In this document: piece by piece, positions 39,667 to 41,349 of the stretch
Layout of the letters: each line of letters opens with the position of its first letter
Numbering within the stretch: the first letter of the stretch is position 1
Source of the DNA: Candidatus Omnitrophota bacterium
GTDB taxonomy: Bacteria; Omnitrophota; Gorgyraeia; Zapsychrales; JANLHA01
Length of the DNA: 64,000 bases
Reading direction: 5' to 3'
NCBI GenBank assembly: GCA_029560465.1
Contig: JAKQKX010000069.1
Span: forward strand, 77,021 to 141,020
Position numbers and translations under genes: made by a program
Notes under the pieces: generated by a model
The model's input: the letters and a program-made list of their open reading frames with translations, nothing else
The model's database searches: none
Told to the model about the DNA's origin: nothing

Positions 39667-41349
39667 ATGTTTAAGAAAAAAATAATCCTTTTCTTTGCGA
39701 TACTGATACTTTTTATCAGCCTGGACGCTCCGGCCTGGTGCGGGTCGTTTAAACTGCGCTGGGTCGAGGTGGACGTTGTTTTGGACGCGGATGGGAAAGC
39801 CCATGTTTCCTATGCGGTCCGCTGGTCCTGCCAGGGCGCTGATCTGCACGGTTTTTATTTTGAGGGATTTGCCGGGCGCCCCCGGTTTAATGACCTGGAC
39901 GCGCACGCTGTTGACGAGAAGGGCACGCGGTATCCTCTGGACATCACGTTCCTGTCAGACCGTAAATATGATATTGTGTTGGCGGGGGGGCAGGCTTTTC
40001 ATGACGGAGAGATTACCTACCGTTTTAATTATGAAACTGATTTACAGGAGAGCGGCCATGTCGTCTTGACTGAAAGCCAGGATGGCCGGCTGGTGGTTTT
40101 TAACTGGGCGCCGGTTCAGTGGAGCGACGCCCTAGAGCATGAAACGGTGACCGTCCATTACCCGGTTGTTATGAACACGCCTGAAGGTTCCCCCGAGGCT
40201 CTGTCAGCCGTTAACTTTTTAACCGAGAAGTATGTCAATCAGCGCTATAAGATTGATTATCCGGCGGCGACCAACGCGCAAGGGAATCCGGTGTTCACGG
40301 TCCGCTTTCACCGTGATGATTTGCCCTCACGGTATCATTTCCAGATTCAGACTTATCTCGACGCGAAATATTTTAATCTCACGACCATGGCCGCTTCCCA
40401 ACCCTGGGCGGAGACGCCCGGCTTCCGGAAGGCGGAAGAGAATTATATTTTCAACCGGTACTTCCCTGGCAGCGTCCTGGCCGTGGTGCCGCTTTCCGCC
40501 GGGGGGCTGCTGGGGCTGTTGCTGTTTGGGGGCGTTGTCCTGCTGGTTTTCCCGTTTTTTATTATGACGAGAAAGCATGTGTCCATGCTGTCGGCCCAGG
40601 ACGGGATCGCTCCGATCCGCTGGGACGGGGACGAATGGGTTCCTCCGAAAATTCAAGTGGGGTCGTTCCGGAAGGACGGAAAAATTAACAAGGATCTGAC
40701 AGCGTTGGAAGCGGGGCTTTTACTGGACATCCCTTTGGGGACATTGGCCGGCTTGATGATCCAGAATCTTGAACGTAAAGGGCTCCTGAAGATCATCAGC
40801 CATGAGCCGTTGAAGGTCGAGAGGATGTCGGCCACTGCGGGTGGGGATGATCCTTATGAAAATAATATTTTAAACGCGATCGACATGTCCGGGAATATCC
40901 CGCAGGGATTCATCAACGATCTTTTTCATGCCATGGCCGCGGGGCTTGAGCAAAAAATTTGGGACTGCGATGTGGACGCCACGAAAGCGTATTACAAACA
41001 GCGTATGGACGCCATCCTGGACCAGGAGAAACAGAACCCCCAACAGGAAACGGACACAGGATATTATTGGGATGGGTATTACCACCATTATTACGGACGG
41101 ATGTATTATCATAACCGGGATTATTACCGCCGGGGCCAGGATATCGGACGGGCGCTTGAGGTGAACGCGCCCCAGGTCAAGGAAGGGTTTTCTTCTTTCC
41201 GGAATTCCTCGCTTTGTTATGAAGGGCCGTTTTTGCAGAATGTCTGCCATGACGCGTGCCATTCTGCGTGTCATTCCGCCTGCCATTCCGCGTGTCATTC
41301 CGCCTGCCACGGGGCCTGTCATGGGGCGTGCGTGAGCAGCGGGCATTAA
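39667..41349 (+). CDS. Bitopic membrane protein (signal peptide, ~260-aa extracytoplasmic domain, TM, cytoplasmic tail) ending in a (C-H-x-A)x7 CXXX tandem repeat
   Basis: Signal peptide and single TM ([29 protein letters not shown]). Tyr/His-rich segment ([25 protein letters not shown]) and the final 33 aa [34 protein letters not shown]. The overall architecture loosely resembles DUF2207-type proteins; this is unverified. Confidence 0.7.
   Translation: [560 protein letters not shown]
41245..41328 (+). repeat. In-frame tandem repeat, 7 x 12 nt (2 x 24-nt higher-order units) encoding C-H-x-A
   Basis: TGCCATGACGCG, TGCCATTCTGCG, TGTCATTCCGCC, TGCCATTCCGCG, TGTCATTCCGCC, TGCCACGGGGCC, TGTCATGGGGCG. 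The 24-nt units at 41257-41280 and 41281-41304 differ by a single nucleotide. Confidence 0.95.

Follow-up and report, generated by a model that had tools for sequence, protein, structure and literature searches.

The coding sequence at 39667-41349 (forward strand) of a 64,000-nucleotide stretch of Candidatus Omnitrophota bacterium DNA (assembly GCA_029560465.1, contig JAKQKX010000069.1; "the window" below means this whole stretch) ends with seven in-frame units of 12 nucleotides. This raises the question of whether such a repeat is the product of slippage of the DNA or is maintained by selection on the encoded protein. Comparison with relatives from at least ten phyla points to the second answer: the array is old and under strong purifying selection, and the repeat is very probably a functional motif under constraint rather than a hypervariable stretch. 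The gene which carries it encodes a membrane protein, here called the target, and is followed by the gene of a radical S-adenosylmethionine (radical SAM) enzyme with a SPASM domain and by a third, family-less gene. The best-supported reading of this three-gene cassette, for which we found neither a curated family nor a paper, is a radical SAM/SPASM maturation system guided by a recognition element of the kind known from peptides which are made by ribosomes and modified after translation (RiPPs), with the tail of a large membrane protein as its putative substrate. As a finding on repeat instability the locus is ordinary, and that finding is largely refuted; the defined three-gene cassette is more useful.

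The repeat and its conservation

The array lies at 41245-41328 (forward strand), in frame with the coding sequence 39667-41349, and its units stand in the order TGCCATGACGCG TGCCATTCTGCG TGTCATTCCGCC TGCCATTCCGCG TGTCATTCCGCC TGCCACGGGGCC TGTCATGGGGCG. They encode amino acids 527-554 as one CHDA, four CHSA and two CHGA units, the last being CHGA, and they are followed by TGC GTG AGC AGC GGG CAT TAA, that is, by the end cap CVSSGH and the stop codon (41329-41349, with TAA at 41347-41349), which is conserved at the C-terminal ends of orthologs. The preliminary description of this DNA, made from the sequence alone, had reported a perfect in-frame repeat of seven 12-nt units at the 3' end of a genuine coding sequence. 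The units and their position are borne out by the sequence and the list of open reading frames (ORFs), as are the two 24-nt units, 41257-41280 and 41281-41304, which differ by one base. The word "perfect" is true of the C-H-x-A period and not of the DNA, because most unit pairs share only 7-11 of 12 bases; units 3 and 5 (TGTCATTCCGCC) are the identical pair. Tandem Repeats Finder reported a period of 12 (5.4 copies, 79% matches) and a period of 24 (2.4 copies, 93% matches), while a separate repeat search returned a single family of 24-nt copies at the array. When compared with a null built from the amino-acid sequence and the codon usage of the window, DNA similarity at a lag of 12 was ordinary (P=0.32) and at a lag of 24 borderline across 41245-41328 (P=0.06), the near-identical 24-nt pair being the sole unusual feature (P=0.004). 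With units matching at 7-12 of 12 bases, the array contains no long run of identical DNA units of the contingency type.

Relatives were gathered through the neighboring enzyme gene, by genome and metagenome scans and by an exhaustive profile search. The genome scan found them in 437 of approximately 185,600 species-level genomes from at least ten phyla, mostly of uncultured bacteria: Omnitrophota, Elusimicrobiota, Auribacterota, Firestonebacteria, Hydrogenedentota and Armatimonadota, and further Planctomycetota, Kiritimatiellae, Verrucomicrobia, Acidobacteriota and Nitrospiraceae. The exhaustive profile search yielded 708 cluster representatives, whose tails are of this type as well, and with these included the family-wide range is 2-10 units. 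Copy number was counted in 140 loci, again from at least ten phyla, and 130 of them have seven (59 loci), eight (57) or nine (14) units; the remainder have three (six loci, apparently of one species), four (one), five (two) or six (one).

Among closer relatives the picture is still more uniform. Those at least 55% identical to the protein of the window have seven units in all but two loci, and the 34-residue tail is identical in relatives whose targets are 91% (L008, L009, L011, L012, L091), 79% (L010) and 69% (L013) identical. Codons of this tail differ from those of the window only silently, at 2 of 34 positions in L008, L011 and L012, at 10 of 34 in L010 and at 17 of 34 in L013, while silent differences at conserved residues in the remainder of the gene amount to 21-27%, 40% and 52-54% for the 91%, 79% and 69% relatives, respectively. 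The same tail with synonymous divergence alone is the very pattern that had been named beforehand as contrary to a copy number that varies between strains or cells, and the claim of such variation does not hold for the relatives compared, as all those 69-91% identical have seven units and 57 of 59 pairs with at least 90% body identity have the same unit count. One of the two discordant pairs is accounted for by an H-to-Y substitution with unchanged length; the closest true changes in length are five versus seven units at 93% body identity and three versus six at 87.5%. Whole-unit insertions and deletions are thus rare and occur between species. The suggestion that units expand and contract in frame is therefore correct for gains and losses between species, and as a rule finds no support among close relatives.

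It was also observed that 41245-41346 is silently changed less with respect to the 91% identical relatives L008, L011 and L012 (2 of 34 codons) than is the gene elsewhere (about 21-27%). These three loci are one lineage, so the reduced silent change in the tail counts as a single observation, and it is not seen at larger divergence.

At the level of the protein, the residues C, H and A are near-invariant in about 900 units from 120 proteins, and the x residue is tied to position: D is found in the first unit (CHDA in 102 of the 120 proteins), S in the middle ones and G often in the next to last. Each unit thus has orthologs of its own and is old. The C-terminal ends likewise follow a common pattern, CVS[S/G]G..., with CVSSGH in 49 cases, CVSGGAH in 19, CVSGGSH in 17, CVSGGAR in 13, and others. 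Array and end cap together are the best-conserved region of the protein, with a mean fraction of the commonest residue of 0.91 compared with 0.61 or less elsewhere, which illustrates that a tandem amino-acid repeat can belong to those parts of a gene that are under the strongest constraint. Between-unit codon identity in 84 genomes (3435 observed, 3518 expected from their own codon usage) is 0.98 of expectation. Codon similarity between units thus matches the prediction from codon usage and gives no general indication that the array expanded recently, and a general signal of concerted evolution was rejected on the same figures; recent expansion or strong concerted evolution, which the near-identity of units had suggested at first, thus finds no support in codons or in the position-specific x residues. 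The array is kept up by selection on the protein and not by DNA slippage.

In the 124 distinct arrays of the loci L001-L166 a weak 24-nt super-period was noted at silent sites, codons matching at 0.528 two units apart and at 0.450 in adjacent units. A sign test on the level of clusters gave 46 versus 22 (p=0.005), and the coarsest clustering gave no significance. Occasional duplication or conversion of two units would explain it, as would selection against identical adjacent 12-mers.

An array of the contingency type, prone to slippage, whose copy number shifts between strains or cells and which was recently expanded or homogenized, is highly improbable in the light of these data. It can draw on the in-frame units and the two 24-nt blocks one base apart, on the counts of 2-10 in the family, on codon identity which at a lag of two units is weakly above that at one, and on the 2 of 34 silent differences in the tail where about 27% would be expected from the 91% relatives. 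However, the longest unbroken match between the two blocks, counted within blocks, is 15 nt, the count and the amino acids stay unchanged from 91% down to about 55% identity in spite of silent divergence, close pairs agree and nearly all loci keep to 7-9 units, and neither the position-specific x residues nor the inter-unit codon identity fit homogenization. The resemblance to contingency loci is that of an in-frame tandem repeat inside a coding sequence; in difference to them, the DNA units here are non-identical, close relatives keep a stable copy number, and no other part of the protein is conserved as well as the array. For strains and species the slippage view is largely refuted.

The target protein and its cassette

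The target (560 amino acids) was delimited by the ORF list, its orthologs and an AlphaFold2 (AF2) model. It starts with a signal peptide (aa 1-26, 39667-39744) made of KKK, a hydrophobic core and A-P-A before W, as read from the sequence and a hydrophobic window at 1-28. There follow an extracytoplasmic, DUF2207-like beta-sandwich domain (aa 27-232, 39745-40362), a single transmembrane helix (aa 266-303, 40462-40575; hydropathy, and an AF2 helix at 276-314) succeeded by TRKH, a cytoplasmic winged-helix-like and helical domain (aa 346-500, 40702-41166), a Tyr/His/Arg-rich linker and the Cys-His array, all on the forward strand. Directly before the array, at aa 506-526 (41182-41244), stands the motif F-x-x-F-R-x-S-x-x-C-Y-x-G-x-F, which is the consensus of 120 distinct proteins. 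Neither NCBIfam nor Pfam assigned the target to a family. The match of the N-terminal domain to Pfam DUF2207 (PF09972) is weak in the copy of the window (19.1 bits, with a cut-off of 24.4), the same match is precomputed for some of the target orthologs, and the fold of the domain resembles the N-domains of OST1 and of M1 aminopeptidases. The signal peptide and the positive-inside rule would place the C-terminal half in the cytoplasm, and the array tail could therefore be reached by a soluble enzyme. Attachment of c-type heme through the overlapping CX3CH motifs was considered as well and rejected, because the tail is predicted to be cytoplasmic and maturation genes are not linked.

The linker before the tail (40987-41181, aa ~441-505) is of low complexity and rich in Tyr, His, Arg and Gly; a core of the YYWGGY type recurs in it among orthologs, while its length and sequence vary. 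The protein collection lacks the exact 560-aa target but contains, for this source, the enzyme (at 100% identity) and the third gene (at 95%), so the target gene was probably called with another start there or left uncalled.

Eleven bases downstream of the target gene starts that of the enzyme (443 amino acids, 41361-42692, forward strand), which is preceded by the ribosome-binding site GGAG at 41351-41354, seen in the sequence 6 nt before its ATG. Pfam recognizes Radical_SAM (PF04055, 92 bits) and SPASM (PF13186, 36.7 bits) in it. Within the core (41712-42146) the cysteines C122-x3-C126-x2-C129 are invariant according to Pfam and the ortholog alignment, and the SPASM region (42369-42623) has eight invariant cysteines (337, 351, 354, 369, 408, 411, 417, 421), which by their number would be enough for two auxiliary 4Fe-4S clusters. 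The N-terminal extension (aa 1-112, 41361-41696) appears as a PqqD-like domain, that is, a RiPP recognition element (RRE), on the basis of Pfam PqqD (PF05402) matches in 15 of 49 enzyme orthologs; three of the four orthologs scored individually reach 26-29.5 bits at residues 36-84, above the cut-off of 23.4. No NCBIfam family was assigned to the enzyme at cut-off, the top one being AhbD with 140 bits where 500 are required. By profile the nearest solved structures are those of SkfB (92.7 bits) and PqqE, both of which modify peptides; SuiB, CteB and 8vpo stand lower in the list, behind the non-peptide enzymes cytosylglucuronate decarboxylase and GDGT-MAS. Four features of RRE-dependent radical SAM/SPASM systems are present: a CX3CX2C core, SPASM cysteines, a PqqD-like element (in the orthologs) and a co-encoded candidate substrate with a conserved core.

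The start of the third gene (42689-43651, forward strand) overlaps the stop of the enzyme gene in ATGA. Its product of 320 amino acids is predicted to have four transmembrane helices and a cytoplasmic alpha/beta domain with a fold similar to type III secretion chaperones and YbjN, and it has no family in NCBIfam or Pfam.

The order target, enzyme, third gene was found in every locus with enough downstream DNA (among 90 loci and among further metagenome loci). When ORFs of 87 loci were clustered, the target was present in 87, the enzyme in 85 and the third gene in 82, and no other gene was conserved; in particular, the clustered neighbors included no conserved protease and no conserved transporter or exporter. 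In the most distant clade (11 loci, 24-31% identity) the enzyme gene is divergently oriented and lies upstream, and the tail is kept, as a variant, in all four loci which reach the 3' end of the target gene. These four, L154, L157, L158 and L166, show a variant with a broken period, and the divergent enzyme is seen where upstream DNA was captured (L154, L158, L166). Two tail-less relatives, P0250 and P0287, have neither the SPASM enzyme nor the third gene in their available DNA.

In loci of the Elusimicrobia type, genes for NifU (20 loci) and NifS (15 loci) are situated right after the cassette, all in one lineage (for example L001, 14818-16969, and L004, 10308-12375). The adjacency may be synteny peculiar to that lineage, or else it may hint at a link to metals or clusters.

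A putative substrate of the enzyme

Because the array gene is linked to a peptide-modifying radical SAM enzyme across the family, the tail is probably the substrate of that enzyme. Two further observations are in favor of this: the linkage survives rearrangement, being present in two gene arrangements, and at 69% identity the tail has 17 of 34 codons silently changed and not one amino-acid change. According to the mechanism that we propose, the tail, (Cys-His-x-Ala)7-9 followed by Cys-Val-Ser-[Ser/Gly]-Gly-(x)-His at the cytoplasmic end of a membrane protein which is DUF2207-like and crosses the membrane once, would be an in-cis core peptide. The PqqD domain may dock on the motif directly upstream of the array, which is thus a candidate recognition sequence, and the enzyme would then make one radical-mediated modification per CHxA unit, with the third protein perhaps holding the unfolded tail for it. 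The likeliest product would be a thioether cross-link from Cys sulfur to carbon, of the type found in sacti- and ranthipeptides, where the sulfur is joined to C-alpha, C-beta or C-gamma of a defined acceptor residue; we would nevertheless not trust any specific chemistry very far, as each is doubtful. The modified Cys/His ladder would stay on the membrane protein, uncleaved and unexported, and possibly be metal- or redox-active; that the product is retained is probable because of the absence of a conserved protease or exporter. The roles suggested here for the third protein and for the finished tail, like the chemistry and the status of substrate, are what we infer from gene content and conservation.

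Taken further, this leads to a tentative picture which is possible, though less than an even bet: a protein-embedded cofactor of a kind not described before, built by a radical SAM enzyme. In it, seven to nine modified Cys-His units would form a ladder, made in cis with the aid of a dedicated membrane-anchored, chaperone-like helper, and this ladder would serve as a metal or redox element coupling the domain outside the membrane to the cytoplasm in phyla that are anaerobic and for the most part uncultured, among them Omnitrophota, Elusimicrobiota, Hydrogenedentota, Armatimonadota and Planctomycetota. Its chemistry could be new, for example with the participation of the invariant His.

Several observations weigh against the tail as a substrate of the enzyme, or against parts of the proposed mechanism. 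The PqqD signal of the enzyme in the window is itself below threshold (E 0.02), and a profile search of the PDB with the N-terminal extension returned chance matches to HIV protease and the lasso-peptide RRE protein TfuB1 at E 1.2, which were rejected as evidence. The top NCBIfam matches of the enzyme are the tetrapyrrole enzymes AhbD and NirJ, far under cut-off. It is unusual for a RiPP-like system that neither a protease nor an exporter is conserved, the tail-less control consists of two lineages with limited flanking DNA, and a homolog of the third gene was not seen in the distant clade, where flanks are short. AF2 has no confidence in the structure of the tail (pLDDT, its per-residue confidence score, under 35), for which it draws a helix at aa 528-555. 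Thioether chemistry is a guess, and a new reaction, marked by the invariant His and Ala, is an equal possibility. Finally, cysteine and histidine are classic metal ligands, so that an unmodified metal-binding tail would be conserved too.

This last point is the core of the main rival, namely that the tail is an unmodified Cys/His element which binds metal or Fe-S clusters, in the manner of the CxxxC-lined helices of copper storage proteins or of metallochaperone tails rich in His and Cys, while the enzyme acts elsewhere or takes metal or clusters from the tail. We regard it as unlikely, even if there are nine Cys and eight His in the last 44 residues, the i/i+4 spacing would put the cysteines on one face of a helix such as the one modeled at very low confidence, and NifU and NifS genes follow the cassette in some loci. 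A PqqD domain implies that the substrate is a peptide, and the neighborhood holds no other conserved peptide that could be a candidate; low-complexity metal tails usually vary in length and sequence, which the CHxA tail does not, and the NifU/NifS adjacency is limited to the Elusimicrobia-type loci. Modification followed by metal binding is, besides, compatible with this rival. A much smaller chance, to our judgment, belongs to the tail being cut off and leaving the cell as a small natural product of the RiPP type, with a 520-aa protein as its giant leader. The C-terminal position is indeed like that of RiPP core peptides, and in the window an ABC transporter gene is present downstream (43707-45335), but this gene is syntenic in L008-L012 only, the protease and exporter that such a product calls for are not conserved, and the membrane protein, which is large, conserved and made of two domains, speaks by this for a function of its own as a whole.

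Of systems already described, the closest to a substrate tail of this kind is TIGR04117, defined in silico by Haft as "Cys-Xaa-Xaa-Xaa repeat radical SAM target protein" (PF27846), which shares with the target a Cys at every fourth residue, the C-terminal position and a radical SAM neighbor. The tail aligns to it weakly, at 15.5 bits, and since the cut-off is 50 the target is not a member; PF27846 has a weak precomputed match on the ortholog P0012. The profile differs in having 98 positions, compared with a membrane protein of 560 aa here, and the target differs by the invariant His after each Cys and the fixed CVSxGH end. TIGR04117 itself is not known to have been characterized. In the poly-cyclopropylglycine system, the radical SAM/SPASM enzyme TvgB modifies each TVGG repeat of TvgA, so that there too a C-terminal tetrapeptide repeat receives one modification per repeat (PMC9062424). 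The residues are different, the bond is a C-C bond of Val, and TvgA is a short peptide whose cluster has an oxidase, a peptidase and transporters; here none of these is found and the candidate substrate is a membrane protein.

Within the same radical SAM/SPASM family, QhpD forms Cys thioethers inside the protein QhpC, a subunit which stays in the cell after modification, and PapB and NxxcB form thioethers too (PMC10114670). The similarity of our enzyme to PapB, NxxcB, CteB and SkfB, maturases of ranthi- and sactipeptides, is generic (at most 92.7 bits), and the usual acceptors of these enzymes and of QhpD, Asp, Glu or Asn, are not conserved in the tail, where C, H and A alone are invariant. 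As for the membrane protein, canonical DUF2207 proteins end in Gly-rich tails. Like the target, proteins such as SMU.243 of S. mutans have a signal peptide, an outside beta-sandwich, a transmembrane helix and a cytoplasmic C-terminal part; the target differs from them by a Pfam score under the gathering cut-off, a radical SAM partner and the Cys-His array. Genes for canonical DUF2207 proteins are paired with LemA, and the study which described a neighborhood of DUF2207 and OvoA denies a link to thiohistidine (PMC12631010). In the literature on radical SAM repeat targets, DUF2207 and Omnitrophota radical SAM enzymes we found no paper on the three-gene cassette.

If the tail is the substrate, a radical SAM maturase of the peptide type appears to work on a large membrane protein, at its tail, and not on a short secreted peptide. 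The chemistry could easily be tested, as the motif that serves as substrate is short, does not vary and comes in repeats; it could add a new cross-link or a protein-derived cofactor to radical SAM enzymology, and could also give the first functional handle on the DUF2207-like family.

Other reading frames and surrounding genes

The preliminary description had further considered two ORFs to be artefacts created by other frames of the repeat, and both judgments proved right. On the forward strand, the ORF list and the ortholog alignment show that a GTG start at 41256 puts 35 amino acids (MPFCVSFRLPFRVSFRLP...) before the true ATG of the enzyme at 41361; the extension at 41256-41360 is artefactual, being the repeat read in another frame, as the GGAG precedes the latter start and 49 of 49 orthologs align from it. 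On the reverse strand, the ORF at 40870-41346 is an antisense shadow over the repeat and no gene: the coding sequence opposite to it is under strong purifying selection and its reading frame is backed by about 140 orthologs.

Upstream of the cassette lies a divergent block on the reverse strand (34760-39488) with a B12-binding radical SAM protein, weakly similar to HpnJ and ApyD (37812-39488), a TPR protein (35949-37727) and an APH/choline-kinase-like protein (34760-36007). After the cassette, at 43707-47499 on the forward strand, follow a fused ABC ATPase and ABC-2 permease, a 214-aa protein without a family and an SPFH/Band 7 protein. Synteny of the upstream radical SAM and TPR genes is confined to close Omnitrophota relatives, and that of the ABC gene (43707-45335) to the closest ones, L008-L012; because synteny is restricted in this way, the upstream radical SAM, TPR and kinase genes and the downstream ABC and SPFH genes were rejected as members of the cassette.

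Neither a tRNA nor an Rfam family at the gathering threshold was found in the 64-kb window. Further downstream, at 47570-49498 on the reverse strand, is a 642-aa fusion of unusual architecture, which joins a SAM-dependent methyltransferase (aa ~75-190) to a D-Ala-D-Ala-ligase-C/ATP-grasp domain (aa ~448-633). The segment 52427-58363 on the forward strand holds a 1193-aa protein with a short DUF58 match, a MoxR-type AAA ATPase (56030-57025) and another radical SAM protein (57032-58363).

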